NCBI GenBank assembly: GCA_021158195.1
Contig: JAGGVA010000031.1
Location: 1-43,160 of the forward strand
DNA from: a bacterium
Lineage (GTDB): Bacteria; Patescibacteriota; Minisyncoccia; Minisyncoccales; PEYH01
Length of the DNA stretch: 43,160 nt
Direction: 5' to 3'
The notes below the pieces were generated by a model, which searched no databases, was not told the DNA's origin, and worked only from the letters and a program-made list of their open reading frames with translations. Position numbers and translations under genes: made by a program. Shown piece after piece: positions 1,316-30,499 of this stretch. Numbering within the stretch: the first letter of the stretch is position 1; every line of letters starts with the position of its first letter.

Positions 1316-1630
1316 TTAATCCTCTTTTAAGTTTAAAAATTTATTTAGTAAATTTAAGTATTTTTTGACAACCTTTTTATTTATTTTGTAAAAAATTTTT
1401 ACTCCTTCTTTTCTTGATGAAATTAGATCAAAATCTTTTAGAACTTTCAAATGGTGAGAGACAAGATTTTGGGGTAATTTTAAGTATTGCCAGATTTCAC
1501 AGACACATTTTTCATCTCTTTCCAAAAGGCGTAAAATTTTAATACGATTTTCTTCGGATATTATTTTTAAAAAATCTAACACTTGTCTTAATTTTCTTTC
1601 TGACTTATTTTTACAACGATCTGATTTCAT
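1316..1630 (-). CDS. ArsR/SmtB family metalloregulatory transcription repressor
   Basis: 104 aa. Winged-HTH 'RIKILRLLERDEKCVCEIWQYLKLPQNLVSHHLKVLKDFDLI' with a CVC metal-site motif in helix 3. Confidence 0.85.
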   Translation of the reverse strand: MKSDRCKNKSERKLRQVLDFLKIISEENRIKILRLLERDEKCVCEIWQYLKLPQNLVSHHLKVLKDFDLISSRKEGVKIFYKINKKVVKKYLNLLNKFLNLKED

Positions 1631-1658: not shown

Positions 1659-1858
1659 ATATTATCTCCTTTCAATCTTTTTGTCAAGTCTGCTTTGCCG
1701 CGCCGAAGACGCGGACATCTTTCATTAATCAAGAATTTTTGATAAAATAAGAAGTATAATTGTCTTCGACAATCAGAACCTTGTTTCCTCAACAACTAAA
1801 GGTTGTTTGGGAAATAAGTTCGAGCAGAGTTGTATAACCACACCTGAAGTTAATCTCG

Positions 1859-3133
1859 ATGAGAAAAAAATTTTTTCTTCAAACCTACGGATGTAAATTA
1901 AATCAGGCGGATTCAGAAATTATTAGAGGGATTCTTTTAAAAAATTTTCAGGAGGCCTCGGAAAAGGAGGCTGATTTTGTCGTAATTAATAGTTGTGGAG
2001 TTATTCAGAAAACAGAAAACAAGATTATAAGGAAGATAAAATCTTTGAAAAAGAATAAGAAAAAGATTATCTTAGCGGGATGTCTTCCATTGATAAATCC
2101 GGAAATTATGAATATGGTTGAAGGAGTAATTGGTCCCGAAGATCTTCTTATGATTAACGAAGTGGCTTTAGAAGTTCTAAGAGGAAAAAAAGTAATAAAG
2201 ATCTCTAAAAGGAAAATTAATAAGGCAAAATATTATTCTTATAGAGTAATTGATAAAGATTCTTGTGTGGCAATTGTGCCGATTTCTGAGGGATGTATGG
2301 GAAATTGTTCCTATTGCGCTACAAAATTTGCCAGAGGCAAACTGAAAAGTTATAAAATTGAGGATATTATAAAAGAAATTAATTATTTTTTAGACGCAGG
2401 AGCAAAAGAGATTCATTTAACTTCCCAAGATTTGGGATGCTTTGGTTTAGATAGAGACAGTTTAGAATTGCCAAAATTATTAAAGGAAATCCTTAAAATA
2501 AACAAAGAATTTAGGGTAAGATTGGGAATGGCTAACCCTTCTTATATCAAACTAATAATAAAGCCACTGATTAGTATTTTAAAAGAGGAAAAAATTTATA
2601 AGTACTTGCATATTCCAGTTCAAAGCGGATCTGACAAAATATTAAGATTAATGAAAAGGAGATATAGGGCAGATGATTTTAGAGAAATGGTTTCTCTTTT
2701 AAGAAGAGAAATTCCAGAAATTACTATTGTCACCGATTTCATTGTTGGGTTCCCTCAAGAAACAGGAAAAGATTTTCAAAAAAGCGTGCAATTAATTAAA
2801 GAGACCAAGCCAAATATTATTAATATCACAAAATTTTCACCAAGAAAAAATACAGAGGTATCAAAATTAAAGGATTTACCTGAGAGAGTTAAGACAGAGA
2901 GATCTAGATTTTTAAATTTAATTTCTCAAGAAATAAAAACAAAAGATCAGAAGAAATATTTAGGCAGAATTTTCAAAAAAATTCTAATCGCTCAAAAAGG
3001 AAAAGATAATACTTTAATTGCTCGTTTACCTAACTTTAAAGCAGTTATTTTAAAAAATGGTAAAGTAGGGGAGTGGGTTGATGTAAAAATTGTTGATTGG
3101 AGAGAAAACTATCTTCTGGGAGAAATTGTCTAA
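1859..3133 (+). CDS. Radical-SAM tRNA methylthiotransferase, MiaB/MtaB (CDKAL1-like) family
   Basis: N-terminal UPF0004 'FLQTYGCKLNQADSE', radical-SAM 'CMGNCSYCATKFARG', and a C-terminal TRAM-like domain. Confidence 0.85.
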   Translation: MRKKFFLQTYGCKLNQADSEIIRGILLKNFQEASEKEADFVVINSCGVIQKTENKIIRKIKSLKKNKKKIILAGCLPLINPEIMNMVEGVIGPEDLLMINEVALEVLRGKKVIKISKRKINKAKYYSYRVIDKDSCVAIVPISEGCMGNCSYCATKFARGKLKSYKIEDIIKEINYFLDAGAKEIHLTSQDLGCFGLDRDSLELPKLLKEILKINKEFRVRLGMANPSYIKLIIKPLISILKEEKIYKYLHIPVQSGSDKILRLMKRRYRADDFREMVSLLRREIPEITIVTDFIVGFPQETGKDFQKSVQLIKETKPNIINITKFSPRKNTEVSKLKDLPERVKTERSRFLNLISQEIKTKDQKKYLGRIFKKILIAQKGKDNTLIARLPNFKAVILKNGKVGEWVDVKIVDWRENYLLGEIV

Positions 3134-9081: not shown

Positions 9082-10268
9082 GAATTATAAATCCAGACAA
9101 TATCAATGAAGCGGAAATCGTGATAGGGATTCCTTCGTTAAATGAGGCAGACAGCATTGGGTTTGTAGTAAAACAAATAGATCAGGGATTGGGAAAGTAT
9201 TTTTCTGATAGAAAATCTGTAATAGTGAATGTTGACAACAATTCTCAAGACGGCACAAAAGAGGCCTTTTTAAATACCCAAACTCATACTCCAAAAATTT
9301 ATATTTCAACTCCGGAAAACGTAAAAGGCAAAGGTAATAATCTGCGAAATTTATTCACAATAATGAGAGAACTAGGAGCAAAAGCAGGGGCGACTGTTGA
9401 TGCAGATCTCAAAAGCATTACTCCTAAATGGATAAATTGTTTGATTTCTCCGATATTAAAAGAAAATTATCATTTTCTAACACCTCTATATTACCGACAT
9501 AAATATGATGCCACTATTACTAATCACATCTGCTACCCTTTAGTTTATGGGATTCTTGGTCATAATATACGCCAGCCGATTGGAGGTGATATGGCTTTTT
9601 CTCGAGAAATGACTGAATTCTGGTTGAATCAAGGTTGGCCACCAGAAGTATCTCAATACGGGATAGATATTTTTATGACTTTAAATGCTATTAAATCTCA
9701 GTTGAAGATTGGTCAAGTAAATTTAGTAGCAAAGATTCACAAACCAAGCGCTCCAAAACTGGGACCAATGTTTTTAGCCGTAGCCAAGACACTTTTTGAT
9801 TTTTTATCAGCCAATAAGGAAATTTGGAATGATAAAGAAGTGATAGATGTGCCTGTAGTTTGTAGTGTTGATTATCAAATTCACAAAGAAGATCTTTTTG
9901 TAGATAAAAATAAGATAAAAGAAACCGCTGTTGCAGAGTTTCGAGAAACTTACAAGATGTTAGAACCAGAACTCGATAATGAAATCAAAGAGGTTTTAGA
10001 AAATATATTTATTAAAAAAGAATTTGAACTTTTGAGAGCATCTAACTGGGCAAAAGTGGTGTATCATCTTTTAAACATCTATTGTTCAGCCCAAGCGCCA
10101 AAAAGGGGAGAGATAATAAATTTTTTGAGGGCTCTTTATTTCGGAAGAATTGCAGCATTTATTTCAGAAGTCGAAGATTTAGATGATGAGAAAGCAGAAG
10201 AAAGTATTTTAAACCAAGCAAAGATTTTTCGAAAAGAATTTCTTTCTCAGAAAAATTCCTTCACATAA
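9078..10268 (+). CDS. GT-A fold glycosyltransferase (GT2/GT81-like, glucosyl-3-phosphoglycerate-synthase-like N-terminus)
   Basis: 'VIGIPSLNEADSIGFVV...VNVDNNSQDGT' plus DxD-like 'VDADL'. Start overlaps the upstream GT stop by 4 nt. Confidence 0.5.
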   Translation: MRIINPDNINEAEIVIGIPSLNEADSIGFVVKQIDQGLGKYFSDRKSVIVNVDNNSQDGTKEAFLNTQTHTPKIYISTPENVKGKGNNLRNLFTIMRELGAKAGATVDADLKSITPKWINCLISPILKENYHFLTPLYYRHKYDATITNHICYPLVYGILGHNIRQPIGGDMAFSREMTEFWLNQGWPPEVSQYGIDIFMTLNAIKSQLKIGQVNLVAKIHKPSAPKLGPMFLAVAKTLFDFLSANKEIWNDKEVIDVPVVCSVDYQIHKEDLFVDKNKIKETAVAEFRETYKMLEPELDNEIKEVLENIFIKKEFELLRASNWAKVVYHLLNIYCSAQAPKRGEIINFLRALYFGRIAAFISEVEDLDDEKAEESILNQAKIFRKEFLSQKNSFT

Positions 10269-19739: not shown

Positions 19740-19776
19740 CCTTCCACCTCCTTTGGTAAGGTTCTTGAAATACTTT

Positions 19777-19818: not shown

Positions 19819-20845
19819 TGTGTACACACATTTGGCGGTTTTTCAGGATAGGTTTATCCTGAATAATGTGTATAAAAATGTCTAAAAATATTAAAGAAGA
19901 AAGGTTAAGATGGATTAAACCCATCTATTACAAAAAGATAAAGCTGGTTGATGTAGCTAAGGTATGTCCTTACAGTAAAAGATCCTTAGAAAGGTGGCTG
20001 TCTAACTATCGGAAGTATGGAGAAAAAGGATTAGAGCCTAAATCCACCAGACCAAAAAGTAATCCTAAAGAAACACCTATTAGAATAAAACAAAGGATAA
20101 TTCAATTAAGAAAAGAGACTAAGCTTGGTGCTTTAAAACTTCATTGGAGGCTAAAGAAAGAAGGAATAGATATTCATCCAAGAACCATTGGTAAGATCTT
20201 GGTAAGATCTTAAAGAAAGAGGGATTAACTAGGAAATACAGAACAAAGAAGATTAAATACAAATATGTTAGATCTCTGCTTCAACCGGGTGAATTAGTAG
20301 AGATAGATGTTAAATATGTTCCTCAGAGAATAAAAGGTAAGAGATATTATCAGTTTACAGCCATAGATTCGGCTACCAGATGGAGATACTTAGAGGTTTT
20401 CGATGATATCTCTACTTTTAATGCTTTAAGATTCTTAAAGAAACTAGTTAAGATTGCTCCTTTTAGAGTTAGGGCTGTCAAAACAGACAATGGAAGCTGT
20501 TTTACTAATAGATATACGGGCTATCTTAGAAGTTCTGATCCTCTAAATCCAAGACTACATCCTTTTGATTTACTTTGTCAGGAGTTAGGTATTATTCATT
20601 ACCTCATAGATCCGGGTAAACCTCAGCAGAATGGCAAGGTAGAAAGAAGTCACAGAACAGATCAAGAGCAGTTCTATGATAGAACAACCTTTAAGAATAA
20701 AAGGGAACTAAAACAGAAATTAGAGATCTGGAATGAGGAATACAATAATCTAGAACATTGTAGTTTAAATGGAAAAACACCTAATGAAATGATACAATTA
20801 TTAACAAATCATGTTATTCAGGAACCGACAAAAGTGTGTGCCTAA
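19819..20845 (+). mobile_element. IS481-family insertion sequence (~1.0 kb), boundaries approximate
   Basis: Imperfect terminal inverted repeats: GTACACACATTTGGCGGTT (19822-19840) matches the reverse complement of 20823-20841 at 16/19. Contains an HTH plus DDE (rve) transposase. No clear target-site duplication found. Confidence 0.75.
19866..20845 (+). pseudogene. IS481-family DDE transposase disrupted by frameshift
   Basis: The HTH part (19866-20213) stops at TAA. The stop-free frame 20201-20845 encodes 'ELVEIDVKYVP..YYQFTAIDSATRW..VKTDNGSCF..NGKVERSHRTD' (D, D, E) and is absent from the ORF track because it has no Met. The break is an 11-bp tandem duplication at 20190-20211. Confidence 0.85.
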
Positions 20846-27446: not shown

Positions 27447-27811
27447 ATTATTTGTTGAATTTTTTGAACAATCTCTGAAGGAGTATAGTTTGCTTTTATT
27501 ATATAATCCTTCACTTTATATTTTTTTGCCTCATCGAAATAATTTTCTCCTTCAAGATTGGAAAAGATGATTACAGGAATATTATTTTTCTCTTTTCTTA
27601 ATTTTTTAAGAAAAGAGAGGCCGTCTTCTTTTGGAAGAATGATGTCTAAGATTATAAGATGGAAAGATCTTTTCCTTAAAATCTTTTTTGCCTCTTCGGC
27701 GTCAAAAACACAAGTAACATCAAAGCCCGCTTCTTTAAGTTTTTTTAGATAGATATCTTGAATTAAGGGTTCGTCTTCTACCAAAAGAATTTTTTTCTTC
27801 TTGGCAGACAT
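27443..27811 (-). CDS. Stand-alone response-regulator receiver (CheY-like) protein
   Basis: 'KILLVEDEPLI...HLIILDIILPKEDGLSFLKKLR...PVIIFSN'. No output domain. ATGA overlap with aspS. Confidence 0.85.
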   Translation of the reverse strand: MSAKKKKILLVEDEPLIQDIYLKKLKEAGFDVTCVFDAEEAKKILRKRSFHLIILDIILPKEDGLSFLKKLRKEKNNIPVIIFSNLEGENYFDEAKKYKVKDYIIKANYTPSEIVQKIQQII

Positions 27812-27817
27812 TTATCT

Positions 27818-27826
27818 ATTATACCA
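27818..27826 (-). promoter_or_regulatory. Extended -10 element (TGGTATAAT) 6 nt upstream of the response-regulator ATG
   Basis: Minus strand reads TTTTTGGTATAAT-AGATAA-ATG. This geometry predicts a leaderless or near-leaderless mRNA. Confidence 0.4.
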
Positions 27827-27856
27827 AAAAATTTTTATATTTCCAGTTTTGTATTC

Positions 27857-27890
27857 AAAAAGAAAAGAGGGCCAACCTTAAGGTTGGCCC
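27857..27890 (-). terminator. Rho-independent terminator of the candidate sRNA
   Basis: GGGCCAACC-TTAA-GGTTGGCCC (27869-27890, perfect 9 bp). Followed on the minus strand by TCTTTTCTTTTTG. Confidence 0.8.
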
Positions 27891-28042
27891 GCACAAATAG
27901 TATGGGAAAGCGCGGAAGTTCGGAAAAGGAGGTGACCAATTAAATTCGCAGCACTTTTGATCTTGGATCTAAGTAGGGGGTTCAACAAGTGGGCGGTTAT
28001 TCCCGCGCTTTCCCATTTTATGGCAGGATTTGTTAAGGTTCT
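27857..28042 (-). ncRNA. Candidate structured small RNA (~185 nt), family unassigned
   Basis: Bounded by a consensus promoter and an intrinsic terminator on the minus strand. A 14-bp perfect helix (27902-27915 with 28003-28016) closes a G+C-rich ~86-nt domain. Contains GGUCACCUCCUUUUCC. Confidence 0.5.
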
Positions 28043-28048
28043 ATTTTT

Positions 28049-28078
28049 ATTATATCCTTGGCTCAAAATATATGTCAA
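28049..28078 (-). promoter_or_regulatory. Consensus sigma70-type promoter (TTGACA-18-TATAAT) driving the candidate sRNA
   Basis: Minus strand reads TTGACA at 28078-28073 and TATAAT at 28054-28049. Confidence 0.6.
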
Positions 28079-28089
28079 GGGTTTGCGGT

Positions 28090-28117
28090 TTGAGTCAATT
28101 GGAATTTTTGTTATAAT
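28090..28117 (+). promoter_or_regulatory. Candidate valS promoter with extended -10
   Basis: TTGAGT (28090-28095), 16 nt spacer, TGtTATAAT (28109-28117). Lies 21 nt upstream of the valS ATG. Confidence 0.5.
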
Positions 28118-28138
28118 GAAAAATCTAAAAATTATTGT

Positions 28139-30499
28139 ATGAAAAAACAATACGATTTCAAAATTTCAGAAAAAAAGTGGCAGAAATTCTGGGAAAAAGA
28201 AAAAATTTTTAAATTCAATCCCAAAAAGAAAGGCAAACTTTTTTCTATTGATACTCCCCCGCCTACCTTGAGTGGCAAGATGCACATTGGTCATGCTTTT
28301 TCTTATACTCATCAAGATATTATTGCTCGCTATCATCGAATGAAAGGTGAAAATGTTTTTTATCCTTTTGGCGTTGACAATAACGGACTTCCTTCAGAAA
28401 AGTTGGTAGAAAAGTTAAATAAAGTGAAAATTTTTGATTTAGGAAGAAAGAAATTTGTTCAACTCTGTCAAAAAACCCTCAAAAAGATTCTTCCAGAGTT
28501 TATTTCTGACTGGAAAAGAATAGGAATGTCTTGCGATTTTTCGCTTTTTTATTCTACTATAAGCCCTGAAGTTCAAAAATTAAGCCAGAAATATTTTTTA
28601 GATTTATTTAAAAAGAACAGAATTTATAGAAAAGAAACCCCTACTCTTTGGTGTCCGGAATGTCAAACTGCCATAGCCCAGGCAGAATTAGAAGATAAAG
28701 AAGAAGAGATTCTCTTTAATGATATAGAGTTTTCTTTAGAAGATGGTGGAAAGATTATTATTTCTACCACAAGGCCCGAGCTCCTGCCAAGTTGTGTGGC
28801 AATTTTTGTGCACCCCAAAGACAAAAGATACAGAAAATTTATTGGCAAGAAAGCCATTGTTCCCATATTCGGACAGAAAGTAAAAATAATGCCTGATAGT
28901 AAAGTTGACATAAAGAAAGGAAGCGGTGTAGTAATGTGCTGCACTTTTGGCGATACTACAGATATAGAATGGTATTTCAAACACAAACTACCTCTTAGAA
29001 TTTCTATTACTAAAGACGGTAGGATGAATGAACTAGCCAAAGAATTTCAAGGTTTACCTATAGAAATTGCCAGAAAGAAAATTATAGAACGCCTCAAGAA
29101 TGAAGGGCTTATTAAAAACCAAAAGAAAATAATTCATTCGGTTAATGTTCACGAAAGATGCGGCCATAAAATAGAAATATTGTCTACTCCGCAGTGGTTT
29201 ATAAAATACCTTGATTTAAGGCAAGAGTTTTTGAAGCAGTCATCGAAACTCCACTGGTATCCAAAACATATGAAGTCGCGCTTGGATAATTGGATTAAGG
29301 GATTAAGGTGGGATTGGTGTATCTCCCGGCAGAGATATTTTGGAATTCCTATTCCTGTGTGGTACTGTCAGAATTGTAAAAAGATAATTCTTCCCGATGA
29401 AAAAGATTTGCCAGTAGACCCTTTACACCAAAAGCCAAAAAAGAAATGTAGTTGTGGCTCTAATAAATTTATTCCCGAGAGCGATGTTTTAGATACTTGG
29501 GTTACCAGTTCGCTAACTCCTCAAATTGCCTTTTCTCTTTTAGGCAAGAACGTTTCTCGGAGCAAAATGCTTCCTATGTCTTTAAGACCTCAGGCACATG
29601 ATATTATAAATTTCTGGCTATTTTATACTCTTGTTCGTTCTTATTTACATTTTAAGAAGATCCCTTGGAAAGATGTGGTAATTTCAGGGTTTGTTTTAGA
29701 CCCAAAAGGTGAAAAAATGTCGAAATCCAAAGGCAATGTCGTTGAGCCGCAGATAATTATTGAAAAGTACGGGGCAGATGCTATCCGCTACTGGGCTGCA
29801 AGTGCAAGATTAGGAGAGGATTTACGATACTCAGAAGAAGAAATCAAGCAAGGAAAAAGAACAGTAACAAAACTTTGGAATGCTTCAAGGTTTTCTTTAA
29901 TGCACCTAAAAAGATATTCGCCAAAGAAAATTAGCCCTCAAGGGTTAGAAGACGAAGATAAATGGCTTTTGACAAAACTTTACAGAACCCTGAGAGATTA
30001 TCGGAATTTTATGGATAAATATGAATATTCAAAAGCCAAAGAAACTTTAGATAAATTTTTCTGGAGAGATTTTTGCGACAATTATTTAGAGATAATAAAG
30101 CCCAGAGTTTACAATCCAGAATCTTCCCAAAAATTGAAGTCAGCCCAATTTACTCTTTACACTTCCCTACTTTCTATTCTCAAACTTTATGCTCCTTTTA
30201 TGCCCTTTGTAACAGAGGAAATTTACCAGATGTATTTTAGAAAATTTGAAAAAGAAAAAAGCATCCACATAACTTTGCTTCCAAAACCAAACAAGAAATT
30301 ATATTTCCCAAGAACTGCTCACAATTTTGAATTTGTAATTGAGGCAATAGCCCAGATAAGAAAATACAAATCAGAACACAAACTTCCAATGAATGCAGAA
30401 ATTCAAGAGGTCTCGATTAAAACAAAAAATAAGAAACTTTTGGAGAAGTATTTTCCTCTTTTGCAAAGAGTTCTAAATGTGAAAAGGATTAAATATTAA
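28139..30499 (+). CDS. valS: Valine--tRNA ligase (compact, archaeal-like type)
   Basis: 'IDTPPPTLSGKMHIGHAFSYTHQDIIARYHRMKGENVFYPFGVDNNGLPSE', editing domain 'STTRPELLPSCVAIFVHPKDKRY', and 'KMSKSKGN'. Confidence 0.9.
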   Translation: MKKQYDFKISEKKWQKFWEKEKIFKFNPKKKGKLFSIDTPPPTLSGKMHIGHAFSYTHQDIIARYHRMKGENVFYPFGVDNNGLPSEKLVEKLNKVKIFDLGRKKFVQLCQKTLKKILPEFISDWKRIGMSCDFSLFYSTISPEVQKLSQKYFLDLFKKNRIYRKETPTLWCPECQTAIAQAELEDKEEEILFNDIEFSLEDGGKIIISTTRPELLPSCVAIFVHPKDKRYRKFIGKKAIVPIFGQKVKIMPDSKVDIKKGSGVVMCCTFGDTTDIEWYFKHKLPLRISITKDGRMNELAKEFQGLPIEIARKKIIERLKNEGLIKNQKKIIHSVNVHERCGHKIEILSTPQWFIKYLDLRQEFLKQSSKLHWYPKHMKSRLDNWIKGLRWDWCISRQRYFGIPIPVWYCQNCKKIILPDEKDLPVDPLHQKPKKKCSCGSNKFIPESDVLDTWVTSSLTPQIAFSLLGKNVSRSKMLPMSLRPQAHDIINFWLFYTLVRSYLHFKKIPWKDVVISGFVLDPKGEKMSKSKGNVVEPQIIIEKYGADAIRYWAASARLGEDLRYSEEEIKQGKRTVTKLWNASRFSLMHLKRYSPKKISPQGLEDEDKWLLTKLYRTLRDYRNFMDKYEYSKAKETLDKFFWRDFCDNYLEIIKPRVYNPESSQKLKSAQFTLYTSLLSILKLYAPFMPFVTEEIYQMYFRKFEKEKSIHITLLPKPNKKLYFPRTAHNFEFVIEAIAQIRKYKSEHKLPMNAEIQEVSIKTKNKKLLEKYFPLLQRVLNVKRIKY

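Follow-up and report, generated by a model that had tools for sequence, protein, structure and literature searches.

A candidate small non-coding RNA with a putatively exposed anti-Shine-Dalgarno-like tract in a Patescibacteriota genome

Introduction

The DNA analysed here, termed the window, is a 43,160-nt stretch of contig JAGGVA010000031.1 (assembly GCA_021158195.1) from a member of the Patescibacteriota (candidate phyla radiation, CPR; Minisyncoccia, Minisyncoccales, PEYH01). Between valS and a response-regulator operon lies a spacer of 327 nt, whose minus strand carries a putative structured RNA unit, which an earlier reading of the sequence alone (the sequence-only reading) had described as an orphan gene for a small RNA (sRNA) or decoy displaying an anti-Shine-Dalgarno-like tract. 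To our knowledge, regulatory RNAs are essentially uncharted in the CPR because the organisms are uncultured and their genomes are minimal, and a literature search on sRNAs in the CPR found no paper.

Results

Architecture of the RNA unit

The unit is read from a consensus sigma-70 promoter, the only perfect one in the window, to an intrinsic terminator (Table 1). Transcription is predicted to start near 28042 and to yield an RNA of about 183 nt, in which a free 5' leader precedes a clamp helix (P1) that closes a large C-rich loop, and a short linker connects P1 to the terminator hairpin. The promoter, terminator, helices and tracts of the sequence-only reading were all found at the coordinates it gave, and the two segments that it paired over 14 bp, 27902-27915 and 28003-28016, are exact reverse complements. 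The minimum free energy (MFE) of the fold is −58.1 kcal/mol compared with a shuffle mean of −37.8 kcal/mol (z = −5.2), and 0 of 200 shuffles were as stable. In G+C content the RNA region also ties for the highest value of any 120-nt stretch in the window (0.49 versus a mean of 0.33). With its own promoter, its own intrinsic terminator and no coding content, it has from sequence the features of an independent unit.

Two C-rich motifs in the loop, CCCCCU and CCUCCUUUUCC, are predicted to be accessible, with unpaired probabilities of 0.79-0.91. The second lies in a tract whose segment UCACCUCCUUUU is predicted to be unpaired and constitutes an 11-12-nt copy of the 16S ribosomal RNA (rRNA) 3' tail. 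The core of this tract, UCACCUCCUUU, is identical over 11 nt to the canonical 16S 3' tail.

Table 1. Positions of the RNA unit, its neighbours and the genes led by a Shine-Dalgarno sequence (SD) in the window.
Feature	Position	Strand	Remarks
valS	28139-30499	+	flanks the spacer
Divergent valS promoter, TTGAGT-16-TATAAT	28090-28117	+	neighbour, outside the RNA; 11 bp from the −35 element of the RNA
RNA promoter (sigma-70), TTGACA (28078-28073), 18-nt spacer, TATAAT (28054-28049)	28049-28078	−	12/12 consensus; best in the 3 kb scanned
5' leader, AGAACCUUAACAAAUCCUGCCAUAAA, 26 nt	28017-28042	−	single-stranded; unpaired probability 0.7-0.99
P1 clamp helix, 5' arm, AUGGGAAAGCGCGG, 14 nt	28003-28016	−	pairs perfectly with 27902-27915
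C-rich loop, 87 nt	27916-28002	−	C 29%, G 15%; closed by P1; sequence and length differ among lineages
P2, CGC-C-CACUU (27995-27987) with AAGUG-CU-GCG (27956-27947)	27947-27995	−	weak inner helix of the MFE fold
First C-run, CCCCCU	27975-27980	−	mean unpaired probability 0.91
Anti-SD-like tract, GGUCACCUCCUUUUCC	27922-27937	−	core CCUCCUUUUCC; unpaired probability 0.79
P1 clamp helix, 3' arm, CCGCGCUUUCCCAU	27902-27915	−	exact reverse complement of AUGGGAAAGCGCGG
Linker, ACUAUUUGUGC, 11 nt	27891-27901	−	P1 to terminator; conserved
Intrinsic terminator, GGGCCAACC-UUAA-GGUUGGCCC (27890-27869), tail UCUUUUCUUUUU	27857-27890	−	the unit's own; 9-bp stem (7 G-C)
Response-regulator operon promoter, TGGAAA-16-TATAAT	27845-27818 (region 27811-27845)	−	upstream TG; neighbour, outside the RNA
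Response regulator, 122 aa	27811-27443	−	receiver-only; flanks the spacer
SD-led gene	3210		AAAAAGGAGG
SD-led gene	10938		UAAGGAGGG
SD-led gene	18751		AAGGAGGUGA
SD-led gene	19739		AAAGGAGGUG
SD-led gene	30948		AAAAGGAGGU

Distribution among relatives

Relatives were anchored on valS and exact-protein look-ups, and the spacer between valS and the response regulator was recovered from eleven distinct lineages. A genome scan with valS contributed four useful loci; a metagenome scan gave, apart from one useful locus (L084), almost nothing but distant valS loci of the archaeal type. Units are designated by type: A for the window, B for L004, C for L007 and L165, D1 and D2 for the tandem units of lineage D, and F for L176. 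Lineages B (valS 90% identical) and C (92% in L007, 89% in L165) contain one unit each. Lineage D (L005, L084, L167 and L175; valS 77-82%) contains two complete promoter-RNA-terminator units in tandem, and lineage F (valS 71%) contains a rearranged unit. These copies occupy the same position as in the window and are not dispersed. The unit is absent from L164, L172, L174, L168/L169, L170/L171 and L177, where the spacer measures only 95-192 nt.

The tandem units (L005:5250-5920, minus strand, also in L084, L167 and partly in L175) each comprise TTGACA-N17/18-TATAAT, a structured RNA of about 270-280 nt and a long terminator of their own. Their folds have z values of −7.7 and −5.9, and the related units overall range from −5.9 to −7.8. 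D1 has a 5' hairpin of 14 bp, the loop of which (AAGGAGGUAAG) is complementary over 10 nt to the D1 tail CUUACCUCCU. In L176 (5480-5950, minus strand), the unit is flanked by direct repeats of about 30 bp, CTACC[AT]CAGCCACCTCCCACC[AG]CCCTTA, with one copy upstream and two downstream. The response-regulator promoter region of L176 is present in about 2.5 tandem copies, and a second, truncated TTGACATATAT lies in the unit; these repeats and copies suggest duplication or recombination at the site. A different orphan unit was observed downstream of valS in L177 (4950-5230, minus strand; 72% identity), with the promoter TTGACA-17-TATACT, a highly structured RNA of about 250 nt that includes GGGGGAUCACCUUCUGCC (z −5.5) and a terminator; it has no match in Rfam.

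Sequence constraint and compensatory changes

Four-fold degenerate sites of valS, which provide a neutral baseline, are identical to the window at 71% in L004, 66% in L165, 45% in L005 and 42% in L176. In L004, L007 and L165, identity reaches about 93-100% over the leader, P1, the linker and the terminator, and the promoter hexamers are also conserved. Across types A, B and C, almost no change is seen in the hexamers, the leader, both P1 arms, UCACCUCC-UUU, the linker or the terminator, whereas the remainder of the loop can barely be aligned and contains indels of 4, 7, 8, 5 and 1 nt, which are not multiples of three. The tract UCACCUCC(U)UUU is invariant in these three closest lineages although its flanks have diverged, and the first C-run reads UCCUCU in L004 and CCUCCCC in L007/L165. 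In A, B, C and F, the predicted unpaired probability of the C-rich tracts is 0.67-0.99. The consensus structure of A, B and C retains only P1 and the terminator. P2, the second helix of the sequence-only reading, is present in the window sequence but is not conserved beyond 5 bp (CACUU/AAG(G)UG) in relatives, and it is missing from the consensus structure and from the L165 fold.

The terminator exhibits one compensatory pair (C-G to U-A), and its loop length differs in relatives. At the saturating divergence of L176, the leader segment AAUAGAACCUU and the inner 11 bp of P1 (GGAAAGCGCGG/CCGCGCUUUCC) are identical to the window, and the three outer pairs of P1 have all changed in a compensatory manner (A-U to G-C, U-A to A-U and G-C to C-G). 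The 5' leader, in which AAUAGAACCUU is conserved as far as this lineage, and the inner 11 bp of P1 are thus more strongly constrained than the C-rich tracts. Conservation far above neutral, together with compensatory changes, shows that selection is ongoing at the locus.

No conserved open reading frame (ORF) was found in any of the six frames of the four closest lineages (the window, L004, L007 and L165). The sequence-only reading had allowed that homologues might favour the plus-strand ORF; every frame is broken, and no such preference was seen. Its claim of an orphan, non-coding structured RNA unit is borne out by the conservation of promoter and terminator, the compensatory pairs, the indels outside multiples of three and the lack of a conserved ORF.

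Promoters and reach of the family

A lone perfect promoter in 43 kb is not rare (shuffle probability 0.12). In 197 kb of related loci, both strands included, 8 perfect TTGACA-N16-18-TATAAT sites were found compared with 0.51 expected from shuffles. All 8 sites precede RNA units of types A, B, C, D1 and D2, and RAAAAUR follows every site. Such a perfect promoter suggests that the RNA may be expressed at a very high level.

A covariance model (R1) was built from A, B and C and was run with filters off on both strands of 73 kb. Its best non-self matches were F (E = 0.0015), an element of L005 at 10059-10231, here called element E (E = 0.0035), and D1 (E = 0.019), which are exactly the units that had earlier been picked by eye. 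With default filters R1 did not detect D1, D2 or F, and nhmmer gave no link between A and D. Because the R1 scores are weak, the homology of D1, D2 and element E to the window RNA is suggestive only.

All unit types share a G+C-rich clamp of 14-19 bp around a loop of 45-100 nt, and the clamp arms are alike in sequence (AUGGG-AAAGCGCGG, AUGGGGCGGAAAACGCGG and AUGGCGGGAAGUGCGG). The loops carry runs of at least 4 C or C/U-rich tracts, with a C/G ratio of 1.7-4.2 in A, B, C, D1 and F and of 1.4 in D2 and element E. A strong promoter on the same strand and an own terminator accompany every type but element E. The latter has a 19-bp clamp (GGGUGGUUUUCGGA.../...UCCGAAAACCACCC) and a 60-nt loop that contains CCCACUU...UCACCUCCUUUU, a feature shared with the window RNA; the sole strong promoter nearby, TTGACA-18-TAAAAT (10250-10221), belongs to the opposite strand. 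On that strand, an SD and, behind it, a possible hydrophobic ORF of 29 codons were also noted, and an SD-led IS110-type transposase gene lies about 400 nt from the element. A generic scan for a long helix with a G-poor loop was swamped by A+T-rich stems and yielded no new members, and a motif scan for GGGAAAGCGCGG-type arms recovered known copies only.

Comparison with known RNA families

At gathering thresholds, Rfam 15 has 0 matches in the whole window and, in 14 related loci (L004-L007 and 10 others), none but one tRNA. This check had been proposed for the region in the sequence-only reading, and no known family explains the fold. Relaxing the threshold to E up to 10 gave matches of the RNA region to SorY (0.25), suhB/mmgR (0.28) and the L20 leader (3.2), in which essentially only the terminator hairpin was aligned; they are at chance level and driven by that hairpin. 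At the same limit, no 6S, SRP, T-box, rRNA or riboswitch model matched the RNA region, and neither did the RsaE/RoxS, 6C and LhrC models. A likeness by eye to 5S rRNA, to the L11-binding region of 23S rRNA and to helix 45 of 16S rRNA was dropped, since no rRNA model scored at E up to 10. ARAGORN detected no tRNA or tmRNA, blastn detected no similar DNA in a phage collection, and the loci examined showed no gene for 6S, SRP, RNase P or tmRNA. Taken together with the conservation pattern, these results make it very probable that the locus is a genuine non-coding sRNA gene, transcribed independently, whose family is absent from Rfam.

Genes led by Shine-Dalgarno sequences

In the 45 nt listed upstream of each gene, strong SDs, all of them long, precede only 5 of 41 genes, and about 36 of the 41 have no SD; the rarity of SDs and the five SD coordinates given in the sequence-only reading are correct. 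As it also claimed, each of the five SDs is complementary to the tract, over 7-12 nt. The products of these genes are one PD-(D/E)XK/Cas4-like nuclease and four proteins without a confident family. The SDs present are unusually long (9-12 nt) and occur on orphan, nuclease or transposase-type genes, here and in relatives. Several genes without an SD, such as the response regulator at 27811, start 6-7 nt past the −10 box and hence are leaderless.

In the 5' untranslated region (UTR) of the PD-(D/E)XK nuclease gene (19739-18765), directly upstream of the SD, the segment AGAACCUUACCAA (19753-19765, minus strand) is identical at 12 of 13 positions, in the same sense, to the first 13 nt of the sRNA (AGAACCUUAACAA). 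The orthologous 5' UTR of L167 reads AGAAUUUUACCAA. This likeness could be a shared protein site, a common origin or chance.

Neighbouring genes and other features of the window

The response-regulator operon encodes the regulator, a class II tRNA synthetase of the Asp/Asn/Lys type and a D-Ala-D-Ala carboxypeptidase, in that order. The second gene had previously been labelled a kinase; it is actually a class II aminoacyl-tRNA synthetase. The RNA terminator ends about 46 nt upstream of the operon ATG on the same strand. The operon has its own promoter, and the response-regulator mRNA is leaderless because its ATG lies 6 nt past the −10 element; this promoter and leaderless start are kept in all relatives recovered, those lacking the RNA included.

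The valS of the window is of the archaeal type, with 50-57% identity to DPANN/Woesearchaeota valS and 24-26% to that of other Patescibacteria or typical bacteria, which suggests that the archaeal-type valS of the clade is an old horizontal replacement. Elsewhere, an ORF of 115 aa with a helix-turn-helix (HTH_32/HTH_28), within 19866-20841 on the plus strand, is followed by about 630 nt without an ORF of at least 50 aa. By eye this DNA reads like the C-terminus of an integrase core (rve-type), and 19866-20841 is probably a decayed insertion sequence. A G+C-rich hairpin, CCGCG-CCGAAGA-CGCGG, is located at 1680-1725 (plus strand) in the 228-nt spacer between the divergent genes 1316-1630 (minus strand) and 1859-3133 (plus strand).

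Discussion

A possible trans-acting regulator of genes with long Shine-Dalgarno sequences

Pairing of C-rich seeds with SDs is an established mode of action of sRNAs, as in RoxS (PMC5419742) and IsrR (PMC9410917). By such a mechanism, the consensus sigma-70 promoter would produce the non-coding transcript of about 183 nt, which would end at its own intrinsic terminator. P1 would hold the C-rich loop of about 87 nt open and expose CCCCCU and UCACCUCCUUUU, and these tracts would pair in trans with G-rich ribosome-binding sites. The targets would be the small set of genes with unusually long SDs (AAAGGAGGUG-type), about 5 of the 41; pairing would block 30S binding and repress the SD-led genes as a class, without affecting the majority of SD-less and leaderless genes. 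We infer, and do not show, expression of the RNA, its target genes and their repression. In this full form, a trans-acting C-rich sRNA is the reading with the best support, though a tentative one whose chances fall somewhat short of even. It is favoured by the predicted accessibility of the tracts wherever a clear homologue exists, by the constancy of UCACCUCC between diverging flanks, by the 11-nt equality with the canonical 16S tail and by the complementarity to the few long SDs of the window. From the earlier sRNA or decoy hypothesis, the orphan non-coding RNA and the predicted accessibility of its tract stand, but a function through the anti-SD tract is a plausible proposal only.

Several observations weigh against pairing with SDs. 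The complementarity is not independent evidence because it is automatic for any CCUCC tract. When duplexes were scanned, the CU tract paired best with a purine-rich site other than an SD, with scores only modestly better than those of shuffles, and with 41 genes a target prediction within the window is uninformative. The exact anti-SD copy is confined to the closest lineages: the L176 homologue keeps the leader and P1, lacks CCUCC and has only CCCC/CCCCUU, and the CCUCC tail of D1 in L005 is predicted to be largely paired with an internal GGGGGAGG. The unit is also missing from five related lineages whose gene order is the same and hence, on this comparison, is dispensable. Finally, the constraint on the leader and P1 sequence is unexplained by pairing and suggests a protein partner or a processing signal. 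In a more specific version, the RNA would be a highly expressed mimic of the 16S tail, acting as a class-specific translational repressor that competes with ribosomes for long-SD mRNAs only, and a protein, or Nus-type protection against Rho, would use P1 and the leader as handles. This version is unlikely as it stands.

Alternative explanations

Alternatively, the RNA might titrate a protein and not mRNAs. Candidates for such a decoy or sponge may include a factor of the 16S tail (Era, bS21 or a maturation nuclease), a binder of P1 or the leader (NusB/NusE at a boxA-like site) or Rho, drawn by the C-rich unstructured loop. The invariance of GGAAAGCGCGG/CCGCGCUUUCC and AAUAGAACCUU where neutral sites are saturated suggests that the sequence is recognised and not just the pairing, the equality of UCACCUCCUUU with the canonical 16S tail fits a tail-binding factor, and the high copy number implied by a perfect promoter fits a sponge. 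A U-rich leader element resembling boxA is present in all unit types (GAACCUUAACA, GAUCUUUUACA or GUUCUUUUGUC). Compared with the boxA consensus GYTCTTTAANA (PMC5725501), which may not be that of the host phylum, GAACCUUAACA matches at 8 of 11 positions and GAACUUUAACA of L165 at 9 of 11. The three mismatches of the window element place it at chance frequency, as matches to GCTCTTTAACAA with at most 3 mismatches number 91 in the A+T-rich window versus 90.7 expected; a boxA in the leader is not above chance in the window and is kept as a lead only. With no candidate protein partner linked to the locus and the anti-SD copy absent from L176, a decoy is rather improbable, though the points against SD pairing keep it in play. 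A very divergent housekeeping RNA beyond the Rfam models is another candidate, 6S RNA being the most plausible one; the size, the consensus promoter and the long helix around a large open region fit it loosely, and none of the loci examined shows a gene for 6S, SRP, RNase P or tmRNA. The absence of any match to 6S or another family at E up to 10 speaks against this. The 5' and 3' ends are also unpaired, with a free leader, a separate terminator and no long terminal stem, and the 'bubble' of the fold is 7 nt versus 31 nt. Moreover, the unit is missing at this site in five close relatives whose gene order is the same and present in two copies in others, unlike an essential single-copy RNA, so that a hidden housekeeping RNA is highly improbable.

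A cis-acting leader or attenuator, of the riboswitch or T-box kind, would control the operon of the response regulator and the aspartyl-type tRNA synthetase by terminator read-through. Its strand, the distance of the terminator from the ATG and the class II synthetase in the operon are compatible with this role, and the leader segment AACCUUAA can pair with UUAAGGUU of the terminator; this antitermination pairing was rejected, being lost in L176. Since lineages without the RNA keep the operon promoter and its leaderless ATG, the RNA unit is an insertion of which the operon is independent, and this is a strong argument against a cis-acting leader. P1 is furthermore a perfect 14-bp helix without a competing antiterminator, no T-box or riboswitch matched at E up to 10, and two complete promoter-to-terminator units stand in tandem in L005, which together make cis control very unlikely. 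Nearly the same low standing is given to a functionless relic of a mobile or duplicated element, be it a MITE-like insertion with P1 as its inverted repeats or a decayed copy, either of the 5' region from an SD-led gene or of a unit like an rRNA operon. The patchy presence among relatives, the conserved arms around a variable interior, the repeats of about 30 bp around the L176 unit, the clamp element adjoining the IS110-type transposase in L005 and the same-sense recurrence of AGAACCUUAACAA in the nuclease 5' UTR would all suit a relic. It is contradicted by promoter, leader, P1 and terminator conserved far above neutral with compensatory changes, by the single copy in 43 kb and by the lack of a match in the phage collection. 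No target-site duplication flanks P1 in the window, and neither dispersed copies nor such duplications, as expected of a MITE, were found in the window or the related loci, the direct repeats of L176 being noted above. That the region encodes a small protein or a type I toxin-antitoxin pair is scarcely credible. ORFs of 61-90 codons exist, including one of 90 codons on the minus strand (27878-28150), and a plus-strand SD-like AAGGAGGUGA precedes an open frame whose stop (ATGA) overlaps the valS ATG. No canonical start codon lies 4-12 nt past that SD-like sequence, no plus-strand promoter lies upstream, and stops or frame-shifting indels break every frame in L004, L007 and L165. In the four closest lineages, no small ORF was conserved with its start at the right distance from an SD, and coding on either strand was rejected.

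Relation to known regulatory RNAs

The window RNA resembles the C-rich sRNAs of Gram-positive bacteria (RsaE/RoxS, IsrR, LhrC1-5 and the actinobacterial 6C) in being a stand-alone gene with its own promoter and intrinsic terminator, and in having at least two unpaired C-rich motifs (of the kinds CCCC, UCCC and CCUCC) complementary to G-rich SD regions. The LhrC genes occur in tandem, as do D1 and D2 in L005. The window RNA has no sequence or covariance-model similarity to RsaE/RoxS, IsrR, LhrC or 6C. The motifs of RsaE/RoxS-type families are located in small hairpin loops, whereas the window RNA has one loop of about 87 nt on a sequence-invariant 14-bp clamp; its tract is an 11-12-nt copy of the 16S tail in place of a 4-nt C-run, and it resides in a Patescibacteria genome whose genes mostly lack an SD. 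The RNA probably belongs in kind to the C-rich base-pairing sRNAs, as a new family of moderate interest within a known mechanism class. Its unusual traits are the clamp-and-large-loop architecture, the full-length copy of the 16S tail and a host mostly without SDs.

Other known RNAs are similar in single respects. The 16S rRNA 3' tail (...GAUCACCUCCUUUCU-3') contains the identical 11 nt UCACCUCCUUU, is single-stranded and would pair with the same SDs, whereas the tract sits inside an RNA of 183 nt, has no helix 45 before it, matches no small-subunit rRNA model and is absent from L176. The leaders of boxA/Nus antitermination have a strong promoter, a U-rich element similar to the GxxCUUUxAxA-like one of the window and a long helix flanking an untranslated RNA body; in contrast to rRNA leaders, the match of 8-9 of 11 positions is of a quality found at chance frequency in the window, and no rRNA follows. 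As a lead only, a boxA-like element would suit the protection of an untranslated C-rich RNA from Rho. T-box leaders are likewise structured RNAs with a terminator upstream of a synthetase-containing operon on the same strand. The window RNA, however, has no T-box sequence, Stem I or specifier stem, competing antiterminator or model match, and it does not supply the synthetase transcript, as a separate promoter serves the operon and relatives do without the unit.

Implications

With a consensus promoter, a structure under selection, no coding potential and no place in the curated families, the RNA is a well-supported sRNA candidate, and a covariance model from this family could serve to search every Patescibacteria genome. 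Should the anti-SD reading hold, it would link the rarity of SD-led initiation with the small gene set of abnormally long SDs and would offer a simple means of controlling the whole set together. If the RNA acts as a mimic of the 16S tail, it would provide one switch for a whole class of long-SD, mostly orphan, nuclease or transposase-type accessory genes.

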